A stretch of 64,000 bases of DNA from an uncultured delta proteobacterium (GCA_963745035.1 CAVUVW010000004.1:7425-71424), one strand, 5' to 3'; counted from the stretch's first letter, positions 11,049 to 63,797 are shown. Program-made: numbers and translations. Notes: a model not told the origin generated them from the letters alone.

Positions 11049-11052
11049 CGAC

Positions 11053-32345: not shown

Positions 32346-33557
32346 ATGAAAAAACACTCCGAAGTATTATTGGCCGACTTGTGTCGCGTGGGCCGCGAAA
32401 CTCCCGCAGGCCAATGGCTGCGCCGATATTGGCTCGCGGTCGGAACCACCCGGGAGCTTTACGACATTCCCCGAGCGGTCAAGGTTTTGGGCGAAGACTT
32501 GGTGCTGTTTCGCGACCCACAGGGCAAAATCGGCTTGTTGGGTCTTCGCTGCCCGCACCGCGGGGCTTCATTGGAATACGGCGACATCGAAGCCGGCGGC
32601 TTGCGCTGTCCGTACCACGGCTGGCTGTTCGACGTGGGCGGGCGCTGTTTGGAGATGCCGGCCGAGGCGACCGACAGTAAGTTCCCTGAAAAGGTGAAGC
32701 ACTTATCTTATCCGGTTCAGGAACTGGGCGGGCTGCTCTTCGCCTATCTTGGACCTGAGCCAACCGATCCCCCGCCCTTGCCCAAATACCGCGCGCTGGC
32801 CGATCCTGCCGGCCGGCGATCGTTGGAGGCGACGCGCGTCTACGATTACAACTGGTTCAACTTTATCGAAAACGGCGCCGACCCGGCGCATTTTTCGATC
32901 CTGCACCGCGCCGATCCGAACGATGGCACCTGGCGCAGCTGGTTTTTTAATTTCAAGGACATTCCGCCGTTCGACGCAGTCGAGACTTCCTACGGGATGA
33001 AAGTCGTGTCGCGCAAGCCGGGACCGACCGGCGACACCGAATACGTCGATGAAAAGAGTTTCGCGCTGCCGAGCATTCTGCAGATCGGCGACACCGAGTT
33101 TACTCACTTCAAGCAGCCGCGCGAGGCGCTCACCGCCGGCTCGCACAACGCCCACTTCATGTTCGTCACGCCGAACGACGATCACAGCTTTACGCTGTTC
33201 ACGGTCAATCACTACACAGGCTCCGATCCGGAATTTTTCGAGAAACTGTCGCCGAGCCGCAAGGTCGAAGCCAAGGCCGAGAAGAAGAGCTATGACCGGC
33301 GCAAGTATTCGCCGTTTCGCGGCAACGTGCGCACAGAGGACATCGCATGCCAGGCGACTCAGCCGCTGCTCGATGAACGTCGGGAGCAACTCGCAACTTC
33401 CGACAAGGGCGTGATTCTGATTCGAAAGATTATCCGGGGCGCGGTCGAGGCGGTGGAGAAGGGCGACGTCCCCAAAGGAATTCCCTCGCGCGGCGATGCG
33501 GAGAAGATGATCCGAATCGATTCGTTCACCGGTATCCGAGCAAAAGGAGGGAGCTGA
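32346..33557 (+). CDS. Rieske non-haem-iron oxygenase, alpha-only type (A1)
   Basis: The Rieske motif is CPHRGASLEYGDIEAGGLRCPYHGW. The mononuclear Fe motif is ENGADPAHFSILH. The N-terminal GQWLRRYW block is typical of phthalate/VanA-type oxygenases. Confidence 0.9.
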   Translation: MKKHSEVLLADLCRVGRETPAGQWLRRYWLAVGTTRELYDIPRAVKVLGEDLVLFRDPQGKIGLLGLRCPHRGASLEYGDIEAGGLRCPYHGWLFDVGGRCLEMPAEATDSKFPEKVKHLSYPVQELGGLLFAYLGPEPTDPPPLPKYRALADPAGRRSLEATRVYDYNWFNFIENGADPAHFSILHRADPNDGTWRSWFFNFKDIPPFDAVETSYGMKVVSRKPGPTGDTEYVDEKSFALPSILQIGDTEFTHFKQPREALTAGSHNAHFMFVTPNDDHSFTLFTVNHYTGSDPEFFEKLSPSRKVEAKAEKKSYDRRKYSPFRGNVRTEDIACQATQPLLDERREQLATSDKGVILIRKIIRGAVEAVEKGDVPKGIPSRGDAEKMIRIDSFTGIRAKGGS

Positions 33558-33558
33558 G

Positions 33559-34989
33559 TTGAAAGTTCGTTCGACGGTATCTCGCTGGTTAGTTGCGGTG
33601 ATTCTGTCCGTTGCGTTGCGCGCCGGCGTTGTCGATGCCGCGCCGCTGCGCGTGGCGTACAGCGCCATCAGTGGCGCGATGTCGTCGCTCTGGGTGGCGC
33701 AGGAGGGCGGCTATTTGAAACGCGAAGGGCTCGATACCGAATTGCTTTACATCGGCGGTGGCTCGCTTCTGATCCAATCGATGATCAGCGGCGACGTGCC
33801 GTTCGCCTACGGTCCGTCGGTGCCGGTGATCAACGCTTCGCTGCGCGGCGCGGATCTGGTGCTGATCGGCAACACCGGCAATTCTTTGGTCTTCTCGATC
33901 ATGTCGCGGCCCGAGATCAAGCAGCCGGCGCAGCTCAAGGGCAAGAAAGTCGGCGTGACCCGCCTCGGCGGCTCCACCGATTGGGCGCTGGACGCTGCCT
34001 TGAAACAGTGGGGGCTTGATCGGCGCGAGCTCACGGTCATTCAAACCGGCGGGATGCCGGAAGGGTTGGCCGGTCTTATCGCCGGCGCACTCGACGCCGT
34101 GGTGCTATCGCCGCCGAGCAACTTCCGCGCGGCAAAGTCCGGCATGCACGAGTTGGTCGACGTAGGGCAGTTGAAGATCATCTTTCCCAACACGCCCTTA
34201 TCCGCGTCCGAGTCCTTCATCAAATCGAACCGCGAAACCGTGCTCCGTTTCCTGCGTGGCTTCACTCAAGGTTTACATCGCCTGCGCACCGACAAAGAAT
34301 TCAGCATGAAGGTTCTCTCCAAGTACACCAAGGTCACCGATGCCGAGACTTTGGGTCAGCTGCACCAGACTTACGGCGTACGCTACAGCGGCGACCGAAT
34401 TCCTTACATCCGGGCGGAGGGCGTAGACGAAATTCTGAAGCGCACTCCTGGTAAGGAAGCGCGCGAAGCCAAGGTAGACAGCTTCATCGATAACAGTTTG
34501 TTGAAAGACCTAGAGCAGAGCGGCTGGTTCAAAAGTTTGGGACGCGTGAGCATGCGGAGTCGTAGTCACCGGAGGCTCCGGACGATTGGGGCAATACGTC
34601 ATTCGGGAGCTTTTCACTCATGCGCATGGAGTGCTGTCGTTGGACGTAGTCAAGCCGCGCGAATGCTTATGCCCGACGGAGGTCGTCGATCTGCAAAAGT
34701 TCGAGGCCTTGGCGGCGCACTTCAAAGGCGCCGACGCGGTAGTGCATCTGGCGCGGATTCGCTTTCCGTACACCGAAACCGGCTTCGATCCGGCGAAGCA
34801 ACAATGGCAGTTCAGCGATCCAGGCGGCGATGCCGACCGCTTCAAGCAAAACGTTGCGCTGACCAGCAACGTCCTGGCGGCGGCCGAGGCATGCGGCGTG
34901 GGGCGAGTCGTTTGCGGTTCGAGTTTGGCCGTGTACGGGTTGTATTATCCGACCAGACCGCAACTGCCGGATTATTTACCGGTGGATGA
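33559..34989 (+). CDS. exported NMT1/SsuA-type substrate-binding protein (SBP1); ORF lacks the expected stop and reads on about 148 codons
   Basis: TTG start follows AAGGAGGGA. Signal peptide is LVAVILSVALRAGVVDA. Similarity to the paralogue at 41297 (about half of aligned residues by eye) ends at ..LEQSGWFKSLGR (nt ~34545). The remaining Arg/Ser-rich tail overlaps the next gene and is not credible protein. Confidence 0.8.
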   Translation: MKVRSTVSRWLVAVILSVALRAGVVDAAPLRVAYSAISGAMSSLWVAQEGGYLKREGLDTELLYIGGGSLLIQSMISGDVPFAYGPSVPVINASLRGADLVLIGNTGNSLVFSIMSRPEIKQPAQLKGKKVGVTRLGGSTDWALDAALKQWGLDRRELTVIQTGGMPEGLAGLIAGALDAVVLSPPSNFRAAKSGMHELVDVGQLKIIFPNTPLSASESFIKSNRETVLRFLRGFTQGLHRLRTDKEFSMKVLSKYTKVTDAETLGQLHQTYGVRYSGDRIPYIRAEGVDEILKRTPGKEAREAKVDSFIDNSLLKDLEQSGWFKSLGRVSMRSRSHRRLRTIGAIRHSGAFHSCAWSAVVGRSQAARMLMPDGGRRSAKVRGLGGALQRRRRGSASGADSLSVHRNRLRSGEATMAVQRSRRRCRPLQAKRCADQQRPGGGRGMRRGASRLRFEFGRVRVVLSDQTATAGLFTGG

Positions 34990-35431
34990 AGACCATCCGC
35001 GCCGCCCGCAAGACCCGTACGGTTTGACCAAGATCGTCGGCGAGCAGCTTTGCGATGCTTTGACCTGGAGAACCGGCGCGCAGGTCGCGAGCTTACGATT
35101 CGCCGGCGTCTACACCGAGGCGCACCGGTCCATGCTGCTCGAGCGGAGAGAAAATCCGCTCGTCCGCGGCACCGGCGCCCTGTGGAGCTACGTCGATGCG
35201 CGCGACGCAGCGCGCGCATGCCGGTTGGCTTTGGAAACGGACTTTGCCGGGCACCAGGCGTTCAATATTTGCGCACCAATCAGTCTCTCGGACACTGAGA
35301 CCGGGGAACTCGTCAGCCGGTATCTTTCTCAAGTCCGACGAATTCGCGATGGTCTGCAAGGTAACTGGTCAGGATACGATACTAAGAAAGCGGCGGCGGT
35401 GTTCGGTTTCCGCGCGCTGCACGTTCTCTAA
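34586..35431 (+). CDS. NAD-dependent epimerase/dehydratase (extended SDR); true N-terminus lies upstream of the track start
   Basis: In the same frame, upstream of the TTG at 34586, the sequence reads VVVTGGSGRLGQYVIREL (Rossmann GxxGxxG) back to a TGA at 34547-34549. No start codon lies in that frame. The catalytic YGLTK (YxxxK) is present. Confidence 0.8.
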   Translation: MGQYVIRELFTHAHGVLSLDVVKPRECLCPTEVVDLQKFEALAAHFKGADAVVHLARIRFPYTETGFDPAKQQWQFSDPGGDADRFKQNVALTSNVLAAAEACGVGRVVCGSSLAVYGLYYPTRPQLPDYLPVDEDHPRRPQDPYGLTKIVGEQLCDALTWRTGAQVASLRFAGVYTEAHRSMLLERRENPLVRGTGALWSYVDARDAARACRLALETDFAGHQAFNICAPISLSDTETGELVSRYLSQVRRIRDGLQGNWSGYDTKKAAAVFGFRALHVL

Positions 35432-35456
35432 AAACCGGAATCTCCCGATAGGAGGA

Positions 35457-36542
35457 ATGATGCCATCGCAAAGCGAATTTGTGCCGAAAACCTACGGAGC
35501 TACCCCGTTCGATCAGTTTCTCGAATGGGAAGAAATTCCGGTTATCAGAAACTTCGTTGTCAGTGACATCCGTAAACTTCCGGTGGAGCCCTGGCGCCGG
35601 CGCGGTGGTCTCGGTTGCTACATCATTCTCGGACATCCGAAGGAGCCACCCAACTCGGCGGCGTATGTGTGTGAAATTCCCCCGGGTCAAAGTCTAAAAC
35701 CGCAAAAGCAGATGTTCGAGGAAATGATCTTTGTCCTCAAGGGACGCGGGGCGACGACGGTCTGGCTTGATGACGGAAAAAAGCAGACATTCGAATGGCA
35801 GGAGCGCTCGATGTTTTCGATCCCGTTGAATGCATGGCACCAGCATTTCAACGGCCAAGGCGGAGAAACCGTGCGCTATATCGGCTACACCAATGCGCCG
35901 TCCGCTTTCAATCTGTATCACAACTATGATTTTGTCTTTAACAATCCATACCAATTCCTCGACCGCTTTCACGGCGAAGAAGGCTACTTTAGCGGCAAGG
36001 GAACTGCGTTATCTGAGCGCCGGGTCTGGGATACCGCCTTTATCGCCGATATTGAGAAGCTTCAATTTCATGACTGGACTAAAAAGGGTCCAGGCGCCAC
36101 CAACGTCGAGCTCGAGTTCTGCGACAACATAATTTCCGCGCATATCACCAGATCTCCCGTTGGCGCTTACAAAAAAGCGCACCGTCACGGCCTCGGCGCC
36201 GACATTCTCGTGCTCGAGGGAAAGGGCTTCTCGCTCATGTGGCTCGAAGGCTCGCCTATGGAGCGCTACGACTGGGGCGAGTTCAGCATGTTTTCGCCGC
36301 CGCATATGTGGTTTCATCAGCACTTCAACACTGCCAAGGAGCCGCTCAAGATGCTCGCCTTCAAGCCATTTGGACAGAAGTTTCAGGTGATGGACTACGA
36401 CAAACTCTTCGTCAGCACCGGCGGAGGCGGACATTTGATCGAATTTCCCGATGAAGACCCAAAAGTGAAAGCGATGTTCGAGGAGGAACTTTGTAAAGAA
36501 GGTGTCCCTCTTAACATGCCGGCGCATATTTACAAGCGCTGA
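35457..36542 (+). CDS. bicupin protein (gentisate-1,2-dioxygenase-like fold)
   Basis: ATG-ATG follows AGGAGGA. There are two cupin barrels. The first lacks the HxH (..PQKQMFEEMIFVLKGRG..WHQHFN). The second has AHRHGLGADILVLEGKG and WFHQHFN. Confidence 0.7.
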   Translation: MMPSQSEFVPKTYGATPFDQFLEWEEIPVIRNFVVSDIRKLPVEPWRRRGGLGCYIILGHPKEPPNSAAYVCEIPPGQSLKPQKQMFEEMIFVLKGRGATTVWLDDGKKQTFEWQERSMFSIPLNAWHQHFNGQGGETVRYIGYTNAPSAFNLYHNYDFVFNNPYQFLDRFHGEEGYFSGKGTALSERRVWDTAFIADIEKLQFHDWTKKGPGATNVELEFCDNIISAHITRSPVGAYKKAHRHGLGADILVLEGKGFSLMWLEGSPMERYDWGEFSMFSPPHMWFHQHFNTAKEPLKMLAFKPFGQKFQVMDYDKLFVSTGGGGHLIEFPDEDPKVKAMFEEELCKEGVPLNMPAHIYKR

Positions 36543-36550
36543 GGCCATTC

Positions 36551-37525
36551 ATGAGAAAGAGCAACATGCAGAAAAAGTTGATCTTGGCACTCGCGCTAGT
36601 AGTTTCTCTTGCCGCGATGCCACCTGTGTCATGGTCGTTGGAAAAGGTCCGGCTCGGCTATAGCGGAATCGGTTCCGGCGAGGAAGTTCACCATTTCGCC
36701 AAAGAAGCGGGTTTGTTCCAAAAAGCCGGCCTCGACGTCGAAATCGTTTACATACCGGGGGGCTCGACGGTCGTGCAGGCGATGGCGTCAGGTGAGATCC
36801 AGTTCGGTCGCGGTTCGGCCACTGAAGTCGTCAGCGCACATATGGCCGGCTTTCCGCTCAAGATTCTCGCGGCGCTCATCAACAAGTTCGTCTACAGTTT
36901 CGTAACACCAACGACTGTCGTGAAGCCGCAAGACCTCAAGGGCCGGGCAGTGGCGATCAGCCGCTTTGGTTCTGGTTCGGATTTCATCACCCGTCTGGCG
37001 CTCAAGTCCTGGGGGCTGGAACCGATGAGGGATGTGACCATACTGCAAGTCGGCAATTCCCCCGAGCGATTGGCGGCGATCGTCGGCGGCAAAGTGCATG
37101 GTTCGATTCTTTCCCTGTCGCAGACGCCGAGAGCCAAGGCGTTGGGCCTGCGCGTGCTCGCTGATCTGTCGCAGATCGATGCCGAATATCCGCAAGGGGT
37201 TCTTTACGTGTCATCGTCCTTGATCGAAAAACGCCCGGACTTGATGCGGACTTTTTTGGGCGCATATGTCGAGGCGATTCGTCAATTCAAAACGAATAAA
37301 CAGCTTGCTTATAAAATTATTGCGAAAAGCAGCGGCTTGAAGGACCGGGCTGAGATCGAAGAGTATCATAACCTTTTGTCTAAAAACTTCTTGCTGGATA
37401 ATCCGATGCCGACTGTAGCCGGCGTCAAGACGGTGTTGGAAGATCTCGGCTCAAAAAATCCCAAGGTGCGTGAAATCAAGCCGGAGGATCTGATGGATAC
37501 ACGCTTCTTGCGGGCGTTGAAATAA
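36551..37525 (+). CDS. exported NMT1/SsuA-type substrate-binding protein (SBP2)
   Basis: Signal peptide is LILALALVVSLAAMPPVSWS. The type-II SBP layout shows blocks DLKGRAVAISRFGSGSDF and LSQIDAEYPQGVLYVS. Confidence 0.85.
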   Translation: MRKSNMQKKLILALALVVSLAAMPPVSWSLEKVRLGYSGIGSGEEVHHFAKEAGLFQKAGLDVEIVYIPGGSTVVQAMASGEIQFGRGSATEVVSAHMAGFPLKILAALINKFVYSFVTPTTVVKPQDLKGRAVAISRFGSGSDFITRLALKSWGLEPMRDVTILQVGNSPERLAAIVGGKVHGSILSLSQTPRAKALGLRVLADLSQIDAEYPQGVLYVSSSLIEKRPDLMRTFLGAYVEAIRQFKTNKQLAYKIIAKSSGLKDRAEIEEYHNLLSKNFLLDNPMPTVAGVKTVLEDLGSKNPKVREIKPEDLMDTRFLRALK

Positions 37526-37550
37526 GGCGAGTTGCAGAAAGGCGGTCAGT

Positions 37551-41191: not shown

Positions 41192-41296
41192 GCTTAGGGA
41201 CGCGGGGATTCTCGGACAGTGAAAGGATTTAAGTTATTGCTTGAAAACGGGATGAAGTTGCAAGAATTGCTCTGCGACTAAGCGCGATTATGATGC

Positions 41297-42304: not shown

Positions 42305-42313
42305 GAGGAAGTG

Positions 42314-44369: not shown

Positions 44370-44396
44370 ACACTCGATAGTACGATTTGTAATCTT

Positions 44397-48814: not shown

Positions 48815-48818
48815 AGAA

Positions 48819-56508: not shown

Positions 56509-56633
56509 AAAGTTCATGTCTTATCTAAATACCTGATTTATTTGATGTTTTTTGCCGAAAAGCCCTTGCGCTGCGCAAGCCTCTTCGACTAATATCTGGC
56601 AGGCTTGAATGAAGACGTCACGAGGGTGAACGC

Positions 56634-57800
56634 ATGCTGACGCGCGAAGAAAACGAAATGCTGACGAGGGTGGGGCCGAGTACTCCAGCCGGTGATTTGC
56701 TGCGGCGCTACTGGTTTCCGGTCGGGGTTGCGAGCGAGCTCACCGAAGGAGAATCCAACCCAGATTGTCCGCATTCTCGGCGAAACGCTGGTACTCTTCC
56801 GCGACAAATCGGGGAATGTCGGATTGATCGATGATCGCTGCGCGCATCGCGGCGCGTCGCTTTGCTACGGCAGGGTCGAAAAGCGCGGCATCGCGTGCCC
56901 GTATCACGGCTGGCTTTATGATACCAAGGGCAACTGCCTGGAGACTCCGGCCGAGCCGGCAAGCAGCAAATTCCATCTCACAGTTAAACAGAAAGCCTAT
57001 CCGGTGCAGAAATTGGTCGGGCTCTATTGGACCTACATGGGGCCGAGCCGGCGCCGCTGATCACCAACTTCGATATCTGGTTTCGCAAAGATGGACGGCG
57101 CAAAATTTTTATCCAGCCCCAGCTCGACTGCAATTGGTTTCAGGCGATGGAAAACTCCGTTGATCCGGCGCACTTGCAAATTCTTCATCAAGAGACCGCC
57201 GGGCGCGGGCGCGCCGTGGCGGATAGCACGCGCGGCCTCACCGACGACGTCGCGAATTTCGATTTCTACGAAGTTTCCTACGGCATCATGAAGCGGCGCA
57301 CCTATAAAAACGGCATGATCGACGAGCACCCGCTGATTTTCCCCAACATCTTGCGCCAGGGAAACGTCGGCCAGATCCGCGTGCCGATGGACGATACCCA
57401 CACCAAAGTTTACTTCGTCAGGTTCTTTCCCAGCGAGGACGGTGAGATCATCGAAAACGACGAGCCACCGGCGGAATATCTCGCGCCGTACAAAAACCCA
57501 CCCGATGCGCTGCATCCCTATACGAAATTCCGTATGGACTGCGTGCAGGCGCAGGATCACATGGCCTGGGAAACCCAGGGTCCGATCGCAGATAGGACGC
57601 GCGAGCGCCTGGCGACCACCGACCGCGGTATCATCATGCTGCGCGAAGTCATGTTCCGCGAGATGAAAAAATTGCGCGCGGGGCAGGATCCGATGGGCGT
57701 GATCCGCGATCCCGGCAAGAATCCATTCATCGATACGCACTTGCTGGAATCGATCGAGCAAGGGGTCATGGATCGCGCACCCTACGCCGTCAATCAGTAA
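56634..57800 (+). pseudogene. Rieske oxygenase A4 (paralogue of A3), 2 frame breaks
   Basis: MLTREENEMLTRVGPSTPAGDLLRRYWFPV switches near 56750 to CAHRGASLCYGRVEKRGIACPYHGW..YMGP. A second switch near 57045 leads to ..ENSVDPAHLQILH and on to the end. Confidence 0.8.
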
Positions 57801-57972: not shown

Positions 57973-58707
57973 ATGAGCGATCTCTCAAAATTGCGCGAGT
58001 TGGTGGCGCAGTCGTGCCGGGTGCTCGGCAAACTCAACTTGACCAAAGAACCGAGCGGCCACGTCAGCGCACGGGTGCCGGGCGAGGAGCGCGTGTTGAT
58101 CAAAGCGCGCGGCCCGGAGGAATCCGGCCTGCGCTTCGTCGGTGCGCGCGACATCATCACCGTCGATTTTAACGGTAAGAAAGTCGCCGGCGACGACGGC
58201 CTGGAGACGCCGCAGGAAGTATTCATCCACACTTGGCTTTACAAGACCCGTCCCGAAGTCCAGTGCGTCGTCCACGTCCATCCGCTGACCGTCGTGCTGT
58301 TCACGATTTGCGACAAACCGCTGCTGCCGCTCTACGGCGCTTACGATCCATCGGGTCTGCGGCTGCTCGTGGAAGGATTGGCGGAGTATCCGCGCAGCAT
58401 CACGGTGTCCAACGAAAATCTCGGCGAGGAGTTCGCCAAGGCGATGGGCGGCAAAGCGGCTTGTCTGATGCGCGGTCACGGCATCACCACCGCGGGCGCC
58501 GGAGTTGAGGAGGCAACGCTTACCGCGATCAAGCTCAACGATGCGGCCGAGATCAACTACCGCGCCGCGCTGCTCGGCACACCGCGGCCGATTCCGCCCG
58601 AGGATATCGAAATTCTCGCCGGCAGGACACGCCGCGACACGCGCTCGGTTCACAGCGTTTCCAACTGGCGCTACTACTGCAAGCTGCTCGACGAAGATCC
58701 GGTCTAA
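57973..58707 (+). CDS. class II aldolase/adducin-domain protein
   Basis: The ATG at 57973 lies within the longer track ORF. The motifs SGHVSARVPG, CVVHVHPLTVV (metal His) and LMRGHGITTAG are present. Confidence 0.8.
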   Translation: MSDLSKLRELVAQSCRVLGKLNLTKEPSGHVSARVPGEERVLIKARGPEESGLRFVGARDIITVDFNGKKVAGDDGLETPQEVFIHTWLYKTRPEVQCVVHVHPLTVVLFTICDKPLLPLYGAYDPSGLRLLVEGLAEYPRSITVSNENLGEEFAKAMGGKAACLMRGHGITTAGAGVEEATLTAIKLNDAAEINYRAALLGTPRPIPPEDIEILAGRTRRDTRSVHSVSNWRYYCKLLDEDPV

Positions 58708-58795: not shown

Positions 58796-60523
58796 ATGAC
58801 GATGCGGTCAACCGCTGCCGAAGCTGCCGGTCTCAAATTTCATTGGCGTCCGCAGGGCGCGGCGGAACTGCTCATGCTGGTTTTTTTCGCCACGGCGATG
58901 GGGCTGCCGTTGTTCTTTTTGCTCGCGGGCAGCTTCAACTTGTCGCCCCCCGGCGGGGAAGCGATTTACGGTCTTGGTAATTGGCTGCGCGCGTTCCACG
59001 ACGGCGCGACCATCGATGCGCTCTGGATGAGTTTCTTGCTTTCCGCCGTCCGGCTGGTGCCGGCGATGGCGATCGCGGTGATTTTCGCCTGGCTTATCGG
59101 GCGCACGGATATGCCCGGCGGAAACGCCATTGAATTCTTCTGCTGGCTCGCGTTTTTCATCCCCGATTTTCCCCTGACACTTGCTTGGATTTTGCTCCTC
59201 GATCCCAACTATGGTTTTCTGAACGCGCTCGCGCGCGGCTTGCCGTTCGTCGATGGACCGCTGTTCAATCCTTACAGCTTTTGGGGCATCGTCTGGGTGC
59301 ATACCTCGGCGGGCGGCATCTGGTTCAAGGTGATTCTCCTGACGCCGGTTTTCCGGCGGCTCGGCGCATCGTTGGAGGAAGCGGCGCGGGTCGCGGGCGC
59401 GGACACTTGGACCACACTCCGGCGGGTGACCCTGCCGCTGCTGGCGCCGATGATCTTGGCGGTTGCGGTCTTGAGCTTCATTCGCGGCCTGCAATCGTTC
59501 AACACCGAGCTGCTGCTGGGCACGCCGGCCGGCATCTACGTCTATTCGACGCGCATCTACGACTACATCCGCCGCGAGCCGGCTTCCTACGGCGAAGCGA
59601 CCGCGCTCGGCTCGATCTTCATCGTCATTCTCGGCATCCTGTTGTTTTCCTATTGGCGTTTTCTCGCGGCCAAGGGCAAGTTCGCGGTCATCACCGGGCA
59701 GGGCTACTCGGCCGCGCGCGTTAAGCTCGGCAAGTGGCGCGGCATTGCTTTGGCCGGCTGTCTTTTCTACTTGGCGGTCATGACCGTGTTGCCGCTGATT
59801 TTCCTAGTTGTCGGCTCGTTCATGCGCCGCTTTGGATTTTTTCATATCGCTTCGCCGTTTACCTTGGCGCACTGGCAGAATCTTTTGAGCGACGCGATTT
59901 TTCTCGTGGCGCTGAAAAACAGTTTGATCATTGCAACGGTGGCCGCCGCTGCCGGGATTTTGCTCTACTCCACCGTGGCCTACCTGTTGGCGTCGCGCCG
60001 GACGGTCGCGGGCGCGGTTTTGGAAGGACTCTGCTGGCTGCCGCACGTTCTGCCGGGCATCCTTTTAGGTTTGGGGGTGCTCTGGCTTTTTCTCGCCACC
60101 CCGCTGAGATTTTTTCTTTACGGCACCGTGTGGGGCATCGCCTTCGCGCTCATGCTGAGCGACAGTCCGGTGTCGACCCAGGCATTTCGCGCCGGATTTC
60201 TGCAATTGGGCGCCGATCTCGAAGAAGCCGCGCGCGTTGCGGGGGCGTCGTGGTGGTACACCTACCGGCGCATCTTGCTGCCACTGCTCGCGCCGATCGC
60301 CGGCGCGGTGGGCCTGATGAACTTCGGTGGCGCCTTGACCAGCATCAGCACTCCCGTGCTACTTTACAGCCACCAGTCGCGCCCGCTGGCGATTTTGCTC
60401 CTTGAATACAGCGTGACCGGAGAGTTGGAGCGCGGCGCTGCGCTGGGCTTGCTGATTACCGCCATGATCTGCGTAATGATGCTCGCCGGCCTCAAGCTCG
60501 GTCTGCGTTTGTCCGGGCTGTAG
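58796..60523 (+). CDS. fused two-domain ABC importer permease (2 x BPD_transp_1)
   Basis: The ATG at 58796 lies within the track ORF. There are about 12 TM helices. Two EAA loops are present (LEEAARVAGADTWTTLRRVTLPLLAP and LEEAARVAGASWWYTYRRILLPLLAP). Confidence 0.85.
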   Translation: MTMRSTAAEAAGLKFHWRPQGAAELLMLVFFATAMGLPLFFLLAGSFNLSPPGGEAIYGLGNWLRAFHDGATIDALWMSFLLSAVRLVPAMAIAVIFAWLIGRTDMPGGNAIEFFCWLAFFIPDFPLTLAWILLLDPNYGFLNALARGLPFVDGPLFNPYSFWGIVWVHTSAGGIWFKVILLTPVFRRLGASLEEAARVAGADTWTTLRRVTLPLLAPMILAVAVLSFIRGLQSFNTELLLGTPAGIYVYSTRIYDYIRREPASYGEATALGSIFIVILGILLFSYWRFLAAKGKFAVITGQGYSAARVKLGKWRGIALAGCLFYLAVMTVLPLIFLVVGSFMRRFGFFHIASPFTLAHWQNLLSDAIFLVALKNSLIIATVAAAAGILLYSTVAYLLASRRTVAGAVLEGLCWLPHVLPGILLGLGVLWLFLATPLRFFLYGTVWGIAFALMLSDSPVSTQAFRAGFLQLGADLEEAARVAGASWWYTYRRILLPLLAPIAGAVGLMNFGGALTSISTPVLLYSHQSRPLAILLLEYSVTGELERGAALGLLITAMICVMMLAGLKLGLRLSGL

Positions 60524-60546
60524 CGATCAAGCGCCTCGGAGGAAGC

Positions 60547-61638
60547 ATGAGAATGATCGCGTTGCTTTTTATCATGGTTGCGTCGATCGCGCCGGTATGG
60601 GCGCAAACCAAGGCGAGCGACAAGGACTGGAACGCGCTCGTGGAAGCGGCCAAGAAAGAAGGCAAGGTCGTGGTCGCCGGATCTCCCGATCCGGTGATGC
60701 GCAATGAAATCATTCCCAAGTTCAAAGAGCGCTACGGCGTCGCCGTCGAACTCCTCGCCGGCCGCTCGAGCGAGATCACCGCGCGGGTCAAAACCGAGCG
60801 GGGATCCGGAATCTACAGCGTCGACGTTTATCTCGCTGGACCGGACACGACGGCAGTCGTGCTCTACGGCGAGAGGATGATCGATCCGCTGCGGCCGCTG
60901 TTGGTCATGCCCGAAGTGGTGGACGGCACGAAATGGAAACGCGGCAAGGTCTGGTTCGCCGACCCGGAAGAGCGCTTCGCGGCGCGGCCGTTCAGCAGCG
61001 TGGCGACCATGCTGTTCATTAATACGGATCATGTGAAGCCCGAGGAAATGCGTTCGGCCAAGGATCTGCTCAATCCTAAGTGGCGGGGTAAAATTTCGGC
61101 TGAGGACCCGACCACCACCGGCTCAGGTTCGAACGCCGCGGCGCGGTTTTATCACGATCTCGGCGAAGAATTCGTGCGCAAACTCTATATCGAGCAAAAG
61201 ACCGTGCGCACTCGCGAGCGCCGGCAGATGTCGGACTGGCTCGCGCGCGGCACCCAGCCGATCTGCTTGAACTGCCGGGAAGACGACGTGCGACCGCTGG
61301 TTAAGGAGGGATTCAAGATCCTTGAAATTTTCGAACTGACCGATATGCCCGGCTCGGTCAACGGCTCGCCGTGGATGATCACCATCGCCAATCGAGCCCC
61401 GAATCCGAAAGCGGCGCAATTGTTCGCCAACTGGATTCTGTCGCGCGAGGGCCTTGGTATCTATGCGCGCGGCTACGGCTCGGTCAGCATGCGCACGGAC
61501 GTCGAGGAGAGCAATCTCAATCCGGGTAATCTGCCGAAGAAGGGCGTGAAATATTTCGACGACACCGATTGGAACTGGATTGTCACCGGACGCCATGAGT
61601 ATCGGGAGAAGGTCTGGCAGGTACTCAAATCGCGCTGA
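60547..61638 (+). CDS. periplasmic solute-binding protein, family 1 (FbpA/PotD-like)
   Basis: Signal peptide is MIALLFIMVASIAPVWAQ. The motifs KEGKVVVAGSPDPVMRNEIIPKFKERYGV and ISAEDPTTTGSG are present. Confidence 0.8.
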   Translation: MRMIALLFIMVASIAPVWAQTKASDKDWNALVEAAKKEGKVVVAGSPDPVMRNEIIPKFKERYGVAVELLAGRSSEITARVKTERGSGIYSVDVYLAGPDTTAVVLYGERMIDPLRPLLVMPEVVDGTKWKRGKVWFADPEERFAARPFSSVATMLFINTDHVKPEEMRSAKDLLNPKWRGKISAEDPTTTGSGSNAAARFYHDLGEEFVRKLYIEQKTVRTRERRQMSDWLARGTQPICLNCREDDVRPLVKEGFKILEIFELTDMPGSVNGSPWMITIANRAPNPKAAQLFANWILSREGLGIYARGYGSVSMRTDVEESNLNPGNLPKKGVKYFDDTDWNWIVTGRHEYREKVWQVLKSR

Positions 61639-61652
61639 GCGCGATTTGAAAC

Positions 61653-61694: not shown

Positions 61695-61723
61695 GCAACC
61701 ACGGAAAGAAAGGCGAAGGAGTT

Positions 61724-62659
61724 ATGGCTGCAAAAAAAATTCGTATTTACTACCGGGCGCCGAGCCACGTACCGCTGTGGAAGGTGATGGAAGCATGCGG
61801 CTTCATGGAAAAGCACGGCTTGGCGATGGAAATGGGCTCGCTCGAAGGGCAGCGCAAACGAGCGGCCGAAGGCCTCAAGGCGGGCGAGTTGGATATCGTC
61901 TCGGGCAATCATCACAATTTGTACGCGCGCAAAGCGCTGCACGGCGATCCGTACGTGCACATCGGGCAGAGCAATAATGCCTGGCGTGAGAATTTTTTAG
62001 TCTGCGGCAAAGGCATCAATGGCCTCGCGGACCTGAAAGACAAGCGCATCGCGATGGACGATTACGACGGTCATACGGGACTTAATGTCTGGCTCTATCT
62101 CAGACAGCACGGCTTGGAAGAGGGGCGCGACGTCGAGCTGGTCACCGATCCGGTGAAGGGCGCGGAGCGCGCGAAAGGCGTTATGGACGAAAAATACGAT
62201 GCCACCTTTATCCGCGCGGTGGACCGGCTGCGCGCGTTGAAATTCGGCGCGAAGATCGTCGAAGTCCCGCCCATGGCGATGATCGAAGGCGTGACACTCA
62301 CGACGACGACCACTTACGTGAAGAATCATGAGGGCGAAGCGCGCGCGTTGATTATGGCGATGATCGACGGCATTCATTTCTTTAAAACCAACAAGGCCGA
62401 TACGCTCGCGATCCTAAAAAAGCACTGCTCGCAGCTGCTCAAGATGCACGACGACGCGGAGTGGGATTGTTTTTACGAGACCCAATCCGAGACGCTGGAG
62501 AAAGCGCCGTATCCTTCCATCGAAGCGATTCAGAACGTCTTTGCCCTCGCCGTGAAGCGCGACCCGGAAATCAAGGAATTCAATCCGCTGGCGCTGTGGG
62601 ATCTCCACTATGTCAAAGAGATCGACGACAGCGGTTACATCCGACGACTGTATCAGTGA
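61724..62659 (+). CDS. leaderless (cytoplasmic) NMT1/THI5-fold protein
   Basis: The ATG follows GAAGGAG. The N-terminus MAAKKIRIYYRAPSHVPLWKVMEACGFMEKHGL has no signal peptide. An SBP-like layout follows (DLKDKRIAMDDYDGHTGLNVWLYL). Confidence 0.75.
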   Translation: MAAKKIRIYYRAPSHVPLWKVMEACGFMEKHGLAMEMGSLEGQRKRAAEGLKAGELDIVSGNHHNLYARKALHGDPYVHIGQSNNAWRENFLVCGKGINGLADLKDKRIAMDDYDGHTGLNVWLYLRQHGLEEGRDVELVTDPVKGAERAKGVMDEKYDATFIRAVDRLRALKFGAKIVEVPPMAMIEGVTLTTTTTYVKNHEGEARALIMAMIDGIHFFKTNKADTLAILKKHCSQLLKMHDDAEWDCFYETQSETLEKAPYPSIEAIQNVFALAVKRDPEIKEFNPLALWDLHYVKEIDDSGYIRRLYQ

Positions 62660-62727
62660 TCTGATGAGGGCGACCACCGGTCGGCCCTACGACCTTTGAA
62701 ACATTCTAAAAGATTCTGGAGGTTCTT

Positions 62728-63797
62728 GTGACCGTGACCGCTCAGCCGATCAATCTTTTTGACTTCGAGGAACTTGCCAAAGAACGGCTGCCTAAAGAGG
62801 AGTACGACTACATCGCAGGCGGCGCCACCGACGAGATCAGCGTCGACCGCAACCGGCGCGCGTACGCGTCCTGGGCGTTTCGCCCGCGGGTTTTGCGCGA
62901 CGTGAGCAAGCTCGATCTTTCGACGACTGTGCTGGGCACGAAAGTAAACTTGCCGGTGTTGATCGCGCCGTGCGGCGGGCATAAGCGCGCCCACCCGGAG
63001 GGAGAGTTGGCGACCTATCGCGCCGCGACGACATGCGGCACGGTGCTCGCCGTGAGCGCCAACTCCAACACGTCATTTGAAGATTTGGCGAATTCGGCAA
63101 AGGGTCATCTGTGGGTGCAGATGTATCCATTTCGCAACAAGGAGATGACCGAGGATTGGCTTAAGCGCGCCGCCGACAACGGCTACGAAGCGGTCATCGT
63201 CACCCTCGATTCGCAATGGCCGCCCAAGCGCGAGCGCAACATCCGCAACAACTACCGGCGCACCCGCGGCGTCAACTATCCGAAAACTGGTACCGAAACG
63301 CCGCGGCCGGCGGGACGCGCGGGAGAGGGCTCCGACCCCGCTGCTACCTGGCAGGATCTGGAGTGGATCAAAGAAAGCGGCGGACCTTCCCGTGGTCGCC
63401 AAAGGGCATCATGACCGGCGAAGACGTCGAGCTTTGCATCGAAGTCGGCGCCGACGGCGTGATCGTCTCAAATCACGGCGGCCGACATTTGGACAATACC
63501 CTGGCGACGATCGAAGTGTTGTCCGAGGCAGTCGCGGCGGCAAACGGAAAGTTGGAAGTTTATCTCGACGGCGGCATCCGCCGCGGCGCCGATGTCGTCA
63601 AAGCGATCGCGCTGGGAGCCAAGGCCGTGTTTATCGGCCGCCCGCTCTTCTGGGGGCTCGCGGTCGACGGAGACAAGGGCGTCATTCGTGTTCTCGATAT
63701 TCTCCGTGAAGAGATCGAGATCACCATGGCCAAGTGCGGGAGGCCGACGATCGCAAGCATCGATGCTTCCACCATCGTCAAGGCTCCGCGGTTGTAG
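62728..63797 (+). pseudogene. FMN-dependent alpha-hydroxy-acid dehydrogenase/oxidase (glycolate oxidase/L-lactate dehydrogenase family), 2 frame breaks about 30 nt apart
   Basis: The GTG follows CTGGAGG. NLFDFEELAKERLPKEEYDYIAGGA..TWQDLEWIKES switches to DLPVVAKG and then to IMTGEDV..VIVSNHGGRHLD..YLDGGIRRGADVVKAIALGA. Confidence 0.8.

Follow-up and report, generated by a model that had tools for sequence, protein, structure and literature searches.

Decarboxylation of lignin-derived aryl-glyoxylates by ThDP-dependent enzymes has a precedent (bioRxiv 10.64898/2026.08.18.745639), and the solved structure 7pda is that of PhdA, a phenazine-1-carboxylate decarboxylase (PMC10850782). The locus described here occupies positions 32346-63797 of a 64-kb stretch of DNA (the window) from a soil bacterium that belongs to the uncultured class Binatia. 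No account of a cluster of this kind was found in a literature search, in agreement with an earlier, sequence-only reading, which had not recognised the combination as a described pathway. With a probability of roughly 0.55, we interpret it as a chromosomal, probably LysR-controlled catabolic supercluster of Binatia for carboxylated (hetero)aromatic acids, composed of a backbone and added cassettes. The enzymes of these "binding protein + decarboxylase" cassettes have never been characterised.

Thirty consecutive plus-strand genes were found (Pfam and NCBIfam scans, with Pfam on near-identical contigs), all 30 with a Pfam or NCBIfam family and in the same order that the sequence-only reading had given for about 30 genes. 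The first block contains Rieske, NMT1, SDR (Epimerase), bicupin, NMT1 and UbiD genes, and the second Rieske, DHDPS, NMT1 and UbiD. The third is formed by TPP_C, TPP_N, NMT1, NMT1, TPP_N, TPP_C, PF14518 (weak TenA) and the Mo-hydroxylase large subunit, the fourth by TPP_N, TPP_C, TctC, LigB, RraA, Rieske and Rieske, and the fifth by Aldolase_II, a fused ABC permease, SBP, NMT1 and FMN_dh. The features of the region are:

31359-32237, minus: LysR-family regulator, divergent, 292 aa (PF00126 and PF03466 on the identical gene in contig L010)
32240-32345, no strand: divergent control region (consensus matches)
32346-33557, plus: Rieske oxygenase 1, alpha-only type, 403 aa, intact (PF00355)
33559-34494, plus: NMT1-family periplasmic binding protein a, 311 aa in L001 (PF13379, PF09084)
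34553-35437, plus: extended SDR / NAD-dependent epimerase-family dehydrogenase, 294 aa in L001, 5' end frame-broken (PF01370)
35457-36542, plus: bicupin, candidate gentisate-type ring-cleavage dioxygenase, 361 aa (Cupin_2)
36551-37525, plus: NMT1-family binding protein b, 324 aa (PF09084, 89 bits)
37551-38945, plus: UbiD-family decarboxylase 1, 464 aa (TIGR00148, 352.7 bits, cut-off 244.85)
39018-40257, plus: Rieske oxygenase 2, ~412 aa, frameshift near 39326 by tblastn frame change
40329-41222, plus: DHDPS/NAL-family class I aldolase-like gene, ~296 aa, several frameshifts (PF00701)
41297-42304, plus: NMT1-family binding protein c, up to 335 aa (288 aa in the L001 gene call)
42311-43741, plus: UbiD-family decarboxylase 2, 476 aa (TIGR00148, 311 bits, cut-off 244.85)
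43770-44903, plus: split ThDP pair 1, beta (TPP_C, 199 aa) then alpha (TPP_N, 168 aa) (PF02775, PF02776)
44930-46887, plus: NMT1-family binding proteins d (323 aa) and e (329 aa), 4-nt overlap
46919-48021, plus: split ThDP pair 2, alpha (168 aa) then beta (199 aa), 4-nt overlap
48056-48814, plus: haem-oxygenase-like putative diiron oxidase, 252 aa (PF14518)
48756-51080, plus: Mo-hydroxylase (xanthine oxidase family) large subunit, 752-772 aa, frame-broken (PF01315, PF02738 and PF20256, read from the intact L001 gene)
51185-52299, plus: split ThDP pair 3, alpha then beta, frame-broken
52327-53364, plus: TctC/Bug-family periplasmic carboxylate-binding protein, 344 aa, frame-broken (PF03401)
53524-54485, plus: LigB-type class III extradiol dioxygenase, 318 aa, frame-broken (PF02900)
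54524-55188, plus: RraA-like aldolase / oxaloacetate decarboxylase, 220 aa, frame-broken (PF03737)
55225-57800, plus: LigXa-type Rieske oxygenases 4 (55225-56412, 395 aa) and 5 (56634-57800, ~388 aa, frame-broken, stitched) (PF00355, PF19301 LigXa_C)
57973-58707, plus: class II aldolase-fold protein, 244 aa (NF053537 PhtC, E 3.9e-55)
58796-61638, plus: fused two-domain ABC permease (575 aa) and its solute-binding protein (363 aa) (PF00528, PF13531/PF13416)
61724-62659, plus: NMT1-like protein f, 311 aa, without signal peptide (PF09084, weak)
62728-63797, plus: FMN-dependent 2-hydroxyacid oxidase/dehydrogenase, 355 aa (PF01070)
63929-64000, plus: methyltransferase gene, 5' end, with which the run of plus-strand genes goes on past the window end

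After frame correction, 18 of the 29 intergenic spacers are shorter than 40 nt or overlapping. Their median is 31 nt, compared with 277 nt for the plus-strand genes just upstream (gene calls on contig L010), so the tight packing is specific to the cluster. A packed co-directional run had been proposed, and its packing stands; the co-directionality is not specific, since nearly all of the window is plus-strand, with a positive GC skew. Spacers of 104-221 nt precede TPP_N3, LigB, Rieske5 and the aldolase-II gene, which suggests more than one transcription unit. Beyond the window, the methyltransferase (start 63929) and an HMGL-like gene are co-directional, followed by an amidase on the minus strand. 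Large antisense ORFs, such as that at 42467-43729 (minus), are high-GC shadow ORFs, with neither a gene call nor a Pfam match behind them.

The LysR gene has a 100% tblastn match in the window. The divergent spacer harbors an inverted repeat, TAATCGT-N17-ACGATTA (32240-32270), and a candidate sigma-70-like site, TTGACA-18-TAGTAT (32283-32312), the best consensus match of the 31-44 kb region. From such consensus matches alone we infer the function of the control region; promoter and terminator scans gave a signal at chance level.

Frame breaks affect at least 12 of the 30 genes in the window: NMT1a (a frameshift removes its 3' end with the stop codon), SDR (5' end), Rieske2, DHDPS, Mo, TPP_N3, TPP_C3, TctC, LigB, RraA, Rieske5 and FMN_dh, the last with two 1-nt insertions (63370 and 63408) when compared with a short-read contig. 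Independent assemblies (L001, L007, L011 and L012) and short-read contigs (L003-L006, L008 and L009) of the same population carry these genes unbroken. Because they are intact in near-identical contigs, the breaks are most likely long-read indel errors of the assembly rather than pseudogenes. The indels cluster in dense patches at 34, 41, 51-54 and 63 kb, and in the other long-read contigs the breaks fall elsewhere. Contiguity is backed by overlapping independent contigs covering 14.3-33.4 kb (L010), 32.4-55.0 kb (L001) and 50.5-64.0 kb (L007).

A gene-neighbourhood survey, which had been recommended, covered 34 loci of at least 15 kb around split-ThDP homologues of other species. The cluster families recur there, NMT1 and Mo in 25 loci each, UbiD and TctC in 23 each, Rieske in 22, DHDPS in 19, SDR in 18, LigB and the putative diiron oxidase (HDO) in 11 each, RraA in 10 and FMN_dh in only two, counts that ignore kinship and are not phylogenetically independent, since most of the loci are from Binatia. 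The combination is conserved in other genomes, and the co-localisation of these genes is not accidental. Cluster order is kept in other Binatia species at 64-92% protein identity. The predicted unit of binding protein and decarboxylase proved to be a conserved genetic pairing: in other species, an SBP gene is found no more than 400 nt from 61 of the 76 ThDP pairs and from 13 of the 30 UbiD genes. Mo flanks 21/76 of the ThDP pairs and the putative diiron oxidase 12/76.

The conserved backbone begins with Rieske1, NMT1, SDR, UbiD1, Rieske2 and the DHDPS-like gene and, after a variable slot, continues with the Mo-hydroxylase, ThDP pair 3, TctC, LigB, RraA and Rieske4. Here the slot contains NMT1c, UbiD2, ThDP1, NMT1d, NMT1e, ThDP2 and the putative diiron oxidase. 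That it is variable is shown by the simpler Binatia loci L069 and L086, in which at most a single SBP gene separates DHDPS from Mo, ThDP3 and TctC. The cassettes of a periplasmic binding protein and a cytoplasmic decarboxylase are read as additions to the backbone; farther upstream, the bicupin and NMT1b form a 2.3-kb cassette that is missing in strain L001. In nearly all Binatia loci ThDP pair 3 is followed by the TctC gene, as it is in Acidiferrales, where Rieske2, DHDPS, SDR, Mo, ThDP3 and TctC are found together. The core of Rieske, DHDPS-like, SDR, split ThDP and Mo enzymes extends to SAR202/Dehalococcoidia and Acidobacteriota MAGs. In SAR202 and Dehalococcoidia it comprises ThDP3, Rieske2, DHDPS, SDR and a protein of the VOC (vicinal-oxygen-chelate / glyoxalase-fold) type; close by, on the other strand, there is a gene for a Mo large subunit (~35% identical). 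The lineage of ThDP pair 3 has 70-81% identity in SAR202, Dehalococcoidia and Acidiferrales MAGs. Within the cluster, the repeated modules are old paralogues and not products of recent duplication, with pairwise protein identities of 56-66% for ThDP, 35-57% for Rieske, 33% for UbiD and 20-54% for NMT1.

Exported binding proteins would capture different acids and feed shared membrane transporters. The N-termini of NMT1a, NMT1d and NMT1e are signal-peptide-like, and NMT1c is 54% identical to NMT1a. The permease and its SBP show weak PhnU2/PhnS-type matches; no ABC ATPase gene is present in the cluster, and the homologous transporter in L012 has one.

The phthalate-dioxygenase-type and LigXa-type Rieske oxygenases may perform ring hydroxylation or demethylation. 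Rieske1, whose translation shows CxH...CxxH and the iron motif DPAHFSILH, is 57% identical to Rieske2, and Rieske4 is 46% identical to Rieske5. In a PDB search, the Rieske2 ortholog of L012 matched phthalate dioxygenase (7fhr, E 7e-52). Dihydrodiols would be re-aromatised by the SDR, in which TGGSGRLG and YGLTK motifs were seen (GalE 46 bits, cut-off 262). Removal of ring carboxyl groups may fall to the UbiD enzymes, whose closest solved relatives are the 2,5-furandicarboxylate decarboxylase HmfF (6h6v, E 2e-76) for UbiD1 and PhdA (7pda, E 4e-113) for UbiD2, and to the PhtC-like protein. The latter had been called an aldolase II; it does have the class II aldolase fold, but is probably a further decarboxylase, of the dihydroxyphthalate type, because it reaches 186.8 bits with the PhtC (3,4-dihydroxyphthalate decarboxylase) model (cut-off 200). 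Ring opening would be due to LigB (PRK13364 112 bits, cut-off 290) or to the bicupin, which matches gentisate 1,2-dioxygenase (3bu7, E 6e-7; PDB search) and has a GGAGG ribosome-binding site ahead of its ATG. Aldol cleavage may be carried out by the DHDPS-like enzyme (dapA 137 bits, cut-off 206; KDG aldolase 132, cut-off 390; PDB matches to generic DHDPS and NanA) and the RraA-like enzyme (LigK/PcmE 104 bits, cut-off 304.5; PRK09262 107.6, cut-off 179).

The split ThDP enzymes would convert 2-oxoacids, either aryl-glyoxylates or ring-fission products, to aldehydes, and the aryl-glyoxylates possibly come from the FMN-dependent 2-hydroxyacid oxidase (LldD, lactate oxidase and MftD models all under cut-off). 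Among solved structures, the phosphonopyruvate decarboxylase RhiEF (9iz3) comes nearest to pair 2, though only with E 3e-6 and 2e-9, and the cofactor motifs E-x2-A...G-x-G and SDGS...DN are conserved in the alignment with it. The ThDP enzymes are very remote from solved ones (E 1e-6 to 1e-9), and they could be lyases or carboligases, not decarboxylases. Altogether, the mixture of oxygenase and ring-cleavage genes, which stand for aerobic aromatic chemistry, with UbiD and ThDP genes that had been noticed at first was recovered, with phthalate-dioxygenase-family and LigXa-type Rieske enzymes, LigB and bicupin, two UbiD and three ComDE/RhiEF-like pairs. The "TenA-like" gene keeps its weak TenA match (PF14518), but is better named a haem-oxygenase-like putative diiron oxidase, with a remote match to CADD (1rcw, E 3e-5) and residues E91, H100, E145, E154, H184, D188 and H198 invariant in 15 homologues.

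No cluster protein reached an NCBIfam equivalog (exact-function) cut-off, so every substrate assignment is by analogy. Genes for a Rieske reductase or ferredoxin, for UbiX and for equivalents of LigC, LigI and LigJ are missing from the cluster; electron-transfer partners, the prFMN synthase UbiX, FeS/FAD subunits and the ABC ATPase would have to come from other parts of the genome. The neighbouring Mo-hydroxylase subunit may turn the aldehydes from the ThDP enzymes into acids. Against this role, its gene has no adjoining FeS or FAD subunit genes, and its best matches are hydroxylases/reductases of aromatic or N-heterocyclic rings, aldehyde oxidoreductases not being among them (4-hydroxybenzoyl-CoA reductase alpha model 440 bits, cut-off 995; PDB matches 1rm6 at 1e-75 and quinoline 2-oxidoreductase at 2e-66).

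The quinoline match, together with those to 6-hydroxypseudooxynicotine dehydrogenase and nicotinate dehydrogenase, fits a rival reading that we regard as unlikely, in which the same architecture serves N-heteroaromatic or amide-containing substrates (phenazine, quinoline or pyridine carboxylates, or purine-like rings), not lignin/phthalate-type benzenoid acids. The Mo enzyme would then hydroxylate beside the ring nitrogen, the Rieske enzymes would act like carbazole/oxoquinoline oxygenases or N-demethylases, and the ThDP enzymes would take small 2-oxoacid fragments freed by amide hydrolysis. The kinship of UbiD2 with PhdA agrees with this, as do the amidase genes found alongside the module in SAR202 and immediately after the window end. 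Rieske2 PDB matches include carbazole dioxygenase, NdmA/B and oxoquinoline monooxygenase; however, its top matches are phthalate dioxygenases (7e-52, versus 1e-15 for carbazole/Ndm). In Rhizobium tumorigenes a ThDP pair is clustered with an Ndm-like Rieske/GST set, guanine deaminase, an amidohydrolase and a Mo enzyme, but this relative is only ~41% identical. The PhtC-like decarboxylase, LigXa_C domains, LigB and the RraA/LigK-like aldolase point instead to benzenoid acids.

It is highly improbable that the cluster serves organosulfonate or organophosphonate metabolism, with the ThDP pairs as true sulfopyruvate/phosphonopyruvate decarboxylases and SsuA/TauA-like and PhnS-like binding proteins. 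The top NCBIfam matches of the ThDP subunits are indeed ComD, ComE and phosphonopyruvate decarboxylase, homologues carry the JGI annotation sulfopyruvate decarboxylase, and Roseobacter plasmids have genuine comDE genes with ~34% identity. NMT1 proteins match SsuA/TauA models, and the permease and SBP match 2-aminoethylphosphonate transporter models. However, scores are far under curated cut-offs (85-98 bits versus 148 and 221; 34-73 versus 163.5; 119 versus 593), as for ThDP pair 1 (ComE 95.7, cut-off 221.5; ComD 93.4, cut-off 147.95) and with SsuA_fam for NMT1a (68.5) and NMT1b (73.5; cut-off 163.5). The cluster and its conserved relatives have no Xsc, SuyAB, sulfite exporter or dehydrogenase, and no PEP mutase, PhnW/X/A or C-P lyase; as conserved partners they have Rieske, UbiD, LigB and Mo enzymes. 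With these low SsuA/TauA and ComD/ComE scores and no desulfonation enzyme in the cluster, the sulfonate substrates initially suggested have no support.

A biosynthetic natural-product cluster deserves still less credence. Haem-oxygenase-like diiron oxidases, RhiEF-type ThDP decarboxylases, UbiD (BagN/FevL) and Rieske (SxtT) enzymes do occur in such clusters and would here serve as tailoring enzymes, but this locus has seven exported solute-binding proteins and a permease, a LysR-type regulator, and ring-cleavage and aldolase genes, with no PKS, NRPS, PEP mutase, terpene or RiPP core gene, and modules are gained and lost between its strains, as they typically are in catabolic islands. Least credible of all is a chance accumulation of unrelated genes, or an array of decaying pseudogenes, for which the strand bias and the frame-broken genes might speak, as order and adjacency are conserved over many species and several phyla, the spacers are far shorter than in the neighbouring region, and the broken genes are intact in other assemblies and short-read contigs, with other long-read contigs broken elsewhere.

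For the preferred catabolic supercluster, ThDP-dependent decarboxylation followed by aldehyde oxidation is supported by aldehyde dehydrogenase genes near the ThDP pairs of cultured relatives (31-41% identity). Such a gene directly adjoins the pair in Bradyrhizobium and lies within ~8 kb of it in Rhizobium, Deinococcus and Ruegeria, often with an amidase, transaminase or amidohydrolase gene alongside. The MAG loci support the same reading, an NAD-ALDH homologue being present in 0/73 of them and the Mo subunit in 25/34. Aromatic-acid chemistry is suggested by the nearest solved relatives, which are phthalate dioxygenase, HmfF and PhdA, and by the PhtC score close to its cut-off.

Plus-strand reading frames run unbroken in series from position 32346 to the end of the window, and ORF listing and translation showed that many switch frame in mid-gene. 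Gene calls and precomputed Pfam assignments were taken from near-identical public contigs, found by look-up of the proteins encoded in the window: L001 (ENA ERZ25039504, 404 kb), L002, L007 (ERZ25039531, 281 kb), L010 and the short-read contigs L003-L006, L008 and L009. Jointly they span 14.3-64.0 kb of the window at 95-99.8% nucleotide identity. The Pfam order on these contigs is as follows.

Block 1: Rieske, NMT1, Epimerase-type SDR, (bicupin, NMT1), UbiD
Block 2: Rieske, DHDPS, NMT1, UbiD
Block 3: TPP_C, TPP_N, NMT1, NMT1, TPP_N, TPP_C, PF14518 (weak TenA), Mo-hydroxylase large subunit
Block 4: TPP_N, TPP_C, TctC, LigB, RraA, Rieske with LigXa_C, Rieske with LigXa_C
Block 5: Aldolase_II, fused BPD_transp_1 permease, binding protein (SBP), NMT1, FMN_dh

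This matches exactly the order of the 30 genes at 32346-63797 proposed in the sequence-only reading. Paralogues are numbered here in gene order (Rieske1-5, UbiD1-2, NMT1a-f, and the split pairs ThDP1-3, with TPP_N as alpha and TPP_C as beta subunit); NMT1 and TctC are binding-protein families.

Mapping of intact orthologues back onto the window showed that at least 12 of the 30 cluster genes shift frame one to three times. These genes are uninterrupted in L001, L007, the short-read contigs, and L011 and L012, a Binatia MAG (79% identity) and a 1.1-Mb contig (90% identity) that repeat the cluster order. Compared with the short-read contigs, the window has just 0-3 indels per 3-6 kb, located exactly at the frame breaks; the Mo gene, for example, carries a surplus AT at 49178, and the FMN_dh gene one surplus base at each of 63370 and 63408. 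The window indels coincide against two independent long-read contigs, with dense patches at 51-54 kb, and other long-read contigs have breaks in different genes. The frameshifts most likely represent assembly errors and not decay. The intact genes of other assemblies and the clustering of the window indels led us to reject a pseudogene array. The 'MFD...bin' names of related genome records presumably denote Microflora Danica nanopore MAGs, which would suit the error pattern. Against independent assemblies, dense indel patches lie at 34.4-34.6, 39-41, 48.7-57 and 63.3-63.4 kb. Most indels are extra bases in the window (69/95 versus L001, 58/65 versus L007) and few are in homopolymers, a pattern unlike the usual nanopore deletions in homopolymers.

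After frame correction the cluster spacers have a median of 31 nt and 18 of 29 are below 40 nt, which bears out the short spacers read earlier from the sequence. For the plus-strand genes immediately 5' of the cluster the median is 277 nt (L010 gene calls), and the tight packing is cluster-specific. Four spacers measure 104-221 nt, which hints at several transcription units. The 5' border is formed by a regulator gene.

31359-32237, minus strand, LysR regulator gene, divergent from Rieske1

The 105-nt spacer between LysR and Rieske1 contains a 7-nt inverted repeat and, at 32283-32312, the best sigma-70-like consensus match of the 31-44 kb stretch. This site alone was noteworthy in the promoter and terminator consensus scans, whose counts were the same as in shuffled controls. 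No Rfam family reached its gathering score in the whole window, and a tRNA scan was also empty. The plus-strand run goes on past the window end with a methyltransferase gene (start 63929) and an HMGL-like gene, and then comes an amidase gene, the first on the minus strand. The strand bias reaches far past the cluster, with nearly all genes over 64 kb on the plus strand and a monotonic rise of the cumulative GC skew, so co-directionality alone is weak evidence. A regulatory block is found 5' of the cluster, at 15-12111.

15-1472, sigma-54 activator with receiver domain
3699-5167, two LuxR-type response regulators
6903-11048, MASE1-PAS-GAF sigma-54 activator (1381 aa)
11308-12111, HisKA_3 histidine kinase

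No tie between this block and the cluster was established. A sulfatase, a MliC-like protein and two DUF1254/DUF1214 proteins are encoded at 21917-26430, also 5' of the cluster and outside it; this sulfatase should not count toward a sulfonate function.

Homologues of the ThDP beta subunit form 1577 clusters at E <= 1e-5, and the named ones belong to 'Candidatus Binatia bacterium'. One genome per GTDB species was scanned, giving 143 matches, from which 73 loci were kept and searched with all 30 cluster proteins. These are mostly from Binatia, with some from Dehalococcoidia/SAR202, Verrucomicrobiia, Acidiferrales and Eisenbacteria. Co-occurrence was counted in those 34 loci that span 15 kb or more, which are mostly Binatia, so that the counts are not phylogenetically independent.

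Occurrence of cluster families in these 34 loci
NMT1, 25/34
Mo subunit, 25/34
UbiD, 23/34
TctC, 23/34
Rieske, 22/34
DHDPS, 19/34
SDR, 18/34
LigB, 11/34
PF14518, 11/34
RraA, 10/34

The sequence-only reading had allowed for an accidental pile-up, should homologous genes never be co-localised elsewhere; because the same families recur together in these loci (mostly Binatia), this does not hold. Outside Binatia, a compact core is kept at surprisingly high identity. The SAR202/Dehalococcoidia core consists of ThDP3 (70-71%), Rieske2 (60%), a small vicinal-oxygen-chelate/glyoxalase-fold (VOC) protein, DHDPS (66-68%) and SDR. The opposite strand carries, not far away, a homologue of the Mo large subunit (about 35% identical), and PF14518, amidase and FMN_dh genes are also close. 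With Rieske, SDR, VOC, aldolase, ThDP and nearby Mo genes, the logic of this core is that of a compact route through dihydroxylation and meta-cleavage. In Acidiferrales the core contains an SBP, Rieske2 (74%), DHDPS (85%), SDR, Mo (68%), ThDP3 (77-81%) and TctC (69%). A contig labelled Chloroflexota MAG262 (L015, JBLMXG010000162.1) also has the cluster, its proteins being 90-93% identical to those of the Binatia window; it probably comes from Binatia and was mis-binned or mislabelled, the alternative being a very recent transfer. The module is also present on the closed Binatia chromosomes OZ253480.1 and OZ244869.1.

The gene orders resolve into a conserved backbone and variable cassettes. Two simple Binatia loci (L069 and L086) carry Rieske1, NMT1a, SDR, UbiD1, Rieske2, DHDPS, Mo, ThDP3 and TctC, and L086 alone has one NMT1 gene between DHDPS and Mo. 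Other loci extend this backbone with LigB, RraA and Rieske4 (and Rieske5, aldolase II and permease). The slot between DHDPS and Mo holds 0 to 9 extra genes, varying by genome. The set in the window is the largest seen: NMT1c, UbiD2, ThDP1 (beta, alpha), NMT1d, NMT1e, ThDP2 (alpha, beta) and PF14518. The bicupin and NMT1b cassette (35269-37613) is a 2.3-kb indel relative to L001, a 98-99% identical strain (L001 2890-3200), and L037 has the pair elsewhere, in inverted orientation. Identity between L002 and the window is about 95% 3' of about 40.3 kb and 80-86% 5' of it. The breakpoint is at the Rieske2/DHDPS junction, a module boundary; L002 looks like a recombination mosaic, which suggests block exchange between lineages. 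Further 5' of the cluster, an insertion-sequence polymorphism separates L010 from the window: L010 1090-3626 encodes a DDE transposase (PF01609) and an additional patatin, against just about 150 nt in the window (15386-15537). The paralogues within the cluster are divergent.

Identity among paralogues of the cluster
ThDP, 56-66%
Rieske, 35-57%
UbiD, 33%
NMT1, 20-54%

Recent tandem duplication was rejected, since the paralogues are just 20-66% identical and orthologues from other phyla are closer. For the same reason, the three ThDP lineages would represent distinct, long-maintained specificities.

The repeated unit of binding protein and decarboxylase, proposed from the sequence, is conserved. 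Among the 76 complete ThDP pairs with at least 1.3 kb of sequence on each side, 61 lie no more than 400 nt from an SBP gene (NMT1 35, TctC 24, other 3), 21 adjoin a Mo subunit gene and 12 a PF14518 gene; likewise, an NMT1 gene adjoins 13 of 30 UbiD genes. Of the six NMT1 proteins, five have a signal-peptide-like N-terminus, as do TctC and the 363-aa SBP; the enzymes have none. The best matches of the NMT1 proteins are SsuA-type models (NCBIfam). The cluster encodes no NitT/TauT-type permease or ATPase. It has a single fused permease without an ATPase gene, the L012 homologue of which has one, and TctB and TctA genes are located about 8 kb 3' of the window. We infer that dedicated capture proteins feed shared translocators. 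NMT1f (61724-62659), a member of the family without a signal peptide, adjoins the FMN-dependent dehydrogenase gene and may act in the cytoplasm, as an enzyme or sensor, instead of binding substrates for transport. Thiamine salvage was considered for the combination of NMT1, TenA-like and ThDP genes; the absence of a TPP riboswitch from the window argues against it, and the TenA Pfam match is just 'weak'.

In an NCBIfam scan of all 30 proteins no equivalog (exact-function) cut-off was reached, and the UbiD subfamily model alone was passed (TIGR00148, 244.85 bits; UbiD1 352.7, UbiD2 311.1 bits). The nearest characterised relative of UbiD1 is HmfF, 2,5-furandicarboxylate decarboxylase (E 2e-76, 261 bits), and that of UbiD2 is PhdA (E 4e-113, 382 bits), phenazine-1-carboxylate decarboxylase (PMC10850782). 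Rieske2 is an alpha-only protein of the phthalate family (7fhr E 7e-52; 7fjl/7v25 E 8e-42) with Rieske and mononuclear-iron motifs, and Rieske4 and Rieske5 carry the LigXa_C domain (PF19301). The aldolase-II protein covers 211/232 positions of the model for PhtC, 3,4-dihydroxyphthalate decarboxylase (NF053537, E 3.9e-55), and its 186.8 bits are just under the equivalog cut-off of 200. Scores were lower for the LigK/PcmE equivalog (104 versus 304.5 bits) and LigB-type models (at most 112 versus 290); LigA, LigC, LigI and LigJ are absent from the cluster and the protocatechuate 4,5-cleavage set is incomplete. The bicupin is nearest to gentisate 1,2-dioxygenase, weakly (E 6e-7). The Mo protein is a large subunit alone (PF01315, PF02738, PF20256) and does not make up a xanthine oxidase-family holoenzyme; a [2Fe-2S] subunit homologue occurs in just 3 of the 73 related loci. 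Its nearest relatives are 4-hydroxybenzoyl-CoA reductase alpha, quinoline 2-oxidoreductase and other hydroxylases, far under all cut-offs.

As a candidate diiron oxidase, the PF14518 protein was assessed by its Pfam match and for conservation of 3 His and 3 carboxylate ligands. Its likeness to CADD is weak (E 3e-5), and 15 homologues all keep E91, H100, E145, E154, H184, D188 and H198; this set is compatible with a diiron site, and we presume that these residues map onto the CADD ligands. PDB sequence searches gave only remote matches for the ThDP subunits, this putative oxidase and the bicupin.

The ThDP pairs are of the split two-subunit type, with PF02776 and PF02775 on adjacent genes. The motifs ES-E-A...GAG and SDGS...(26)...DN align with RhiEF, so that the catalytic Glu and the Mg-ThDP motif are kept. 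RhiEF is a split ThDP phosphonopyruvate decarboxylase (PDB 9iz3/9iz4; PMC12141560), to which the subunits have just E 1e-6 to 1e-9 (9iz3). Against the ComD, ComE and phosphonopyruvate decarboxylase models they reach about half the cut-offs, the ComDE scores (TIGR03845 and TIGR03846) being 85-93 versus 147.95 bits for alpha and 87-98 versus 221.5 for beta. Among 50%-identity representatives there are 54 matches at E <= 1e-30 and 866 at E <= 1e-10, and this two-subunit family has no characterised close member. A protein search of plasmids and chromids detected split pairs of 31-41% identity in cultured bacteria.

Bradyrhizobium guangxiense: amidase, alpha, beta, semialdehyde dehydrogenase, ABC transporter, aminotransferase
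Ruegeria conchae: transaminase, alpha, beta; aldehyde dehydrogenase and Rieske protein nearby
Deinococcus: alpha, beta, ..., aldehyde dehydrogenase
Rhizobium tumorigenes: LysR, alpha, beta, GMC oxidoreductase, amidohydrolase, oxygenase alpha subunit, Mo enzyme, 2Fe-2S protein, aldehyde dehydrogenase

In every cultured context inspected, an aldehyde dehydrogenase gene adjoins the pair or lies within about 8 kb. A homologue of NAD-dependent aldehyde dehydrogenase occurs in none of the 73 related loci, and the Mo subunit is frequent. Because of these contexts, the ThDP pair may convert a 2-oxoacid into an aldehyde that the Mo subunit would oxidise. The R. tumorigenes pair (L087, pRt1078, 221635-242210) is 41% identical to that of the window, and its surroundings, with an Ndm-like Rieske/GST set, guanine deaminase, Mo enzyme, amidohydrolase and aldehyde dehydrogenase, look like a methylxanthine or purine-type catabolic cluster.

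We interpret the genes as a LysR-controlled catabolic supercluster for carboxylated (hetero)aromatic acids, built from a backbone and cassettes, with a probability of roughly 55%. Dedicated binding proteins would serve substrate uptake, Rieske enzymes oxygenation or demethylation, the SDR re-aromatisation, and UbiD and PhtC-like enzymes ring decarboxylation. The extradiol enzyme or the bicupin would open the ring, DHDPS-like and RraA-like enzymes would perform aldol cleavage, and ThDP enzymes would decarboxylate 2-oxoacids prior to Mo-dependent aldehyde oxidation. Accessory parts are missing from the cluster: a Rieske reductase or ferredoxin (none in the flanks either), UbiX for prFMN supply (none in the window or 10-kb flanks), FeS and FAD subunits and an ABC ATPase.

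It is possible, if rather unlikely, that the substrates are N-heteroaromatic instead of benzenoid (phthalate- or lignin-type). The PhdA likeness of UbiD2, the quinoline-oxidoreductase-like Mo subunit, the amidase genes and the Rhizobium context of the split ThDP pair speak for such substrates, and the PhtC-like and phthalate-family Rieske proteins speak for benzenoid ones. Sulfonate or phosphonate metabolism is improbable; no sulfolactate, cysteate or coenzyme M genes were detected in the window or the 73 related loci, where the partners are SBP, Mo, HDO (PF14518), UbiD and Rieske genes. A biosynthetic cluster is very improbable, and an accidental or decaying gene array, given intact genes that recur elsewhere, is hardly credible.

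A wider reading of the catabolic supercluster is doubtful. The split ThDP enzymes could represent an unrecognised catabolic strategy shared across Binatia, SAR202/Dehalococcoidia, Acidobacteriota and Verrucomicrobiota, with each decarboxylase tied to its own binding protein and carboxyl or oxalyl groups stripped serially from poly-carboxylated recalcitrant aromatics. In this speculative scheme their partners would be orphan Mo-hydroxylase subunits, diiron oxidases and UbiD enzymes, and benzene-polycarboxylic acids derived from humic or pyrogenic carbon might serve as substrates, as might dissolved organic matter rich in carboxyl groups. By itself, the window has seven enzymes of decarboxylase type, in four mechanistic classes.

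Binatia and SAR202 are uncultured but abundant in soil and the deep ocean, and what they use as carbon sources is largely guesswork. The cluster provides a concrete, conserved and testable gene set for uptake, stepwise decarboxylation and oxidation of aromatic acids, and an unusual genetic rule, in which a binding-protein gene lies beside the gene of a cytoplasmic decarboxylase without transporter genes there. If the functions are confirmed, it would offer new enzymes for lignin, phthalate or black-carbon-derived acids and new decarboxylases for biocatalysis. The cultured relatives of the ThDP pair on R. tumorigenes pRt1078 (PR017_RS18875 and PR017_RS18880) and B. guangxiense p53363 (X268_RS35500 and X268_RS35505) give an experimental entry, and the pRt1078 locus could be a genetic model for the family.

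The literature searched contained no description of the cluster or of the ThDP clade. With the phthalate, isophthalate and terephthalate operons (pht/oph/tph) of Comamonas, Burkholderia and Arthrobacter, the cluster shares an alpha-only phthalate-family Rieske protein with an adjoining dehydrogenase, a PhtC-like class-II-aldolase-fold decarboxylase, a TctC/Bug-type binding protein and a LysR-type regulator. However, it has no reductase component, its SDR is an epimerase-family enzyme and not a known dihydrodiol dehydrogenase, the PhtC-like gene is 18-25 kb from the phthalate-dioxygenase-like Rieske genes, and those operons lack equivalents of its UbiD, split ThDP, Mo and putative diiron enzymes. 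Common to the lig genes of Sphingobium sp. SYK-6 (protocatechuate 4,5-cleavage, dehydrodivanillate) are LigXa_C Rieske proteins, a LigB-family extradiol dioxygenase and an RraA-fold LigK-like aldolase, whose genes are neighbours in the cluster. The scores are below the family cut-offs, equivalents of LigA, LigC, LigI, LigJ, LigY and LigW are absent, and the decarboxylases are UbiD and ThDP enzymes, whereas LigW is of the amidohydrolase type. With ComDE (sulfopyruvate) and RhiEF the ThDP pairs share two small subunits (about 168 and 199 aa) with PYR and PP domains, the conserved catalytic Glu and the xDGS...DN metal motif, but their context is aromatic catabolism and binding proteins, in place of the coenzyme M, sulfolactate or phosphonate genes of those systems. 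In the mandelate pathway, MdlB is an FMN dehydrogenase, MdlC a benzoylformate decarboxylase and MdlD an aldehyde dehydrogenase; MdlC-type enzymes also use lignin-derived vanillyl glyoxylate (bioRxiv 10.64898/2026.08.18.745639). The cluster could follow the same chemistry, from a putative FMN-dependent 2-hydroxyacid oxidase through a ThDP 2-oxoacid decarboxylase to an enzyme that oxidises aldehydes. The oxidising partner would here be the Mo-hydroxylase subunit, the ThDP enzyme is of the two-subunit ComDE/RhiEF type, with about 25-27 bits to the MdlC-type model, and FMN_dh genes are near ThDP homologues in just 2 of 34 loci. UbiD1 and UbiD2 resemble HmfF and PhdA in sequence, and both pass the subfamily cut-off; the cluster has no UbiX, HmfG or PhdB partner gene, and here an NMT1 binding-protein gene is directly 5' of each UbiD gene. 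As a catabolic gene cluster it is of a known kind, its enzyme combination is undescribed, and the coupling of SBP and decarboxylase genes is unusual and conserved.
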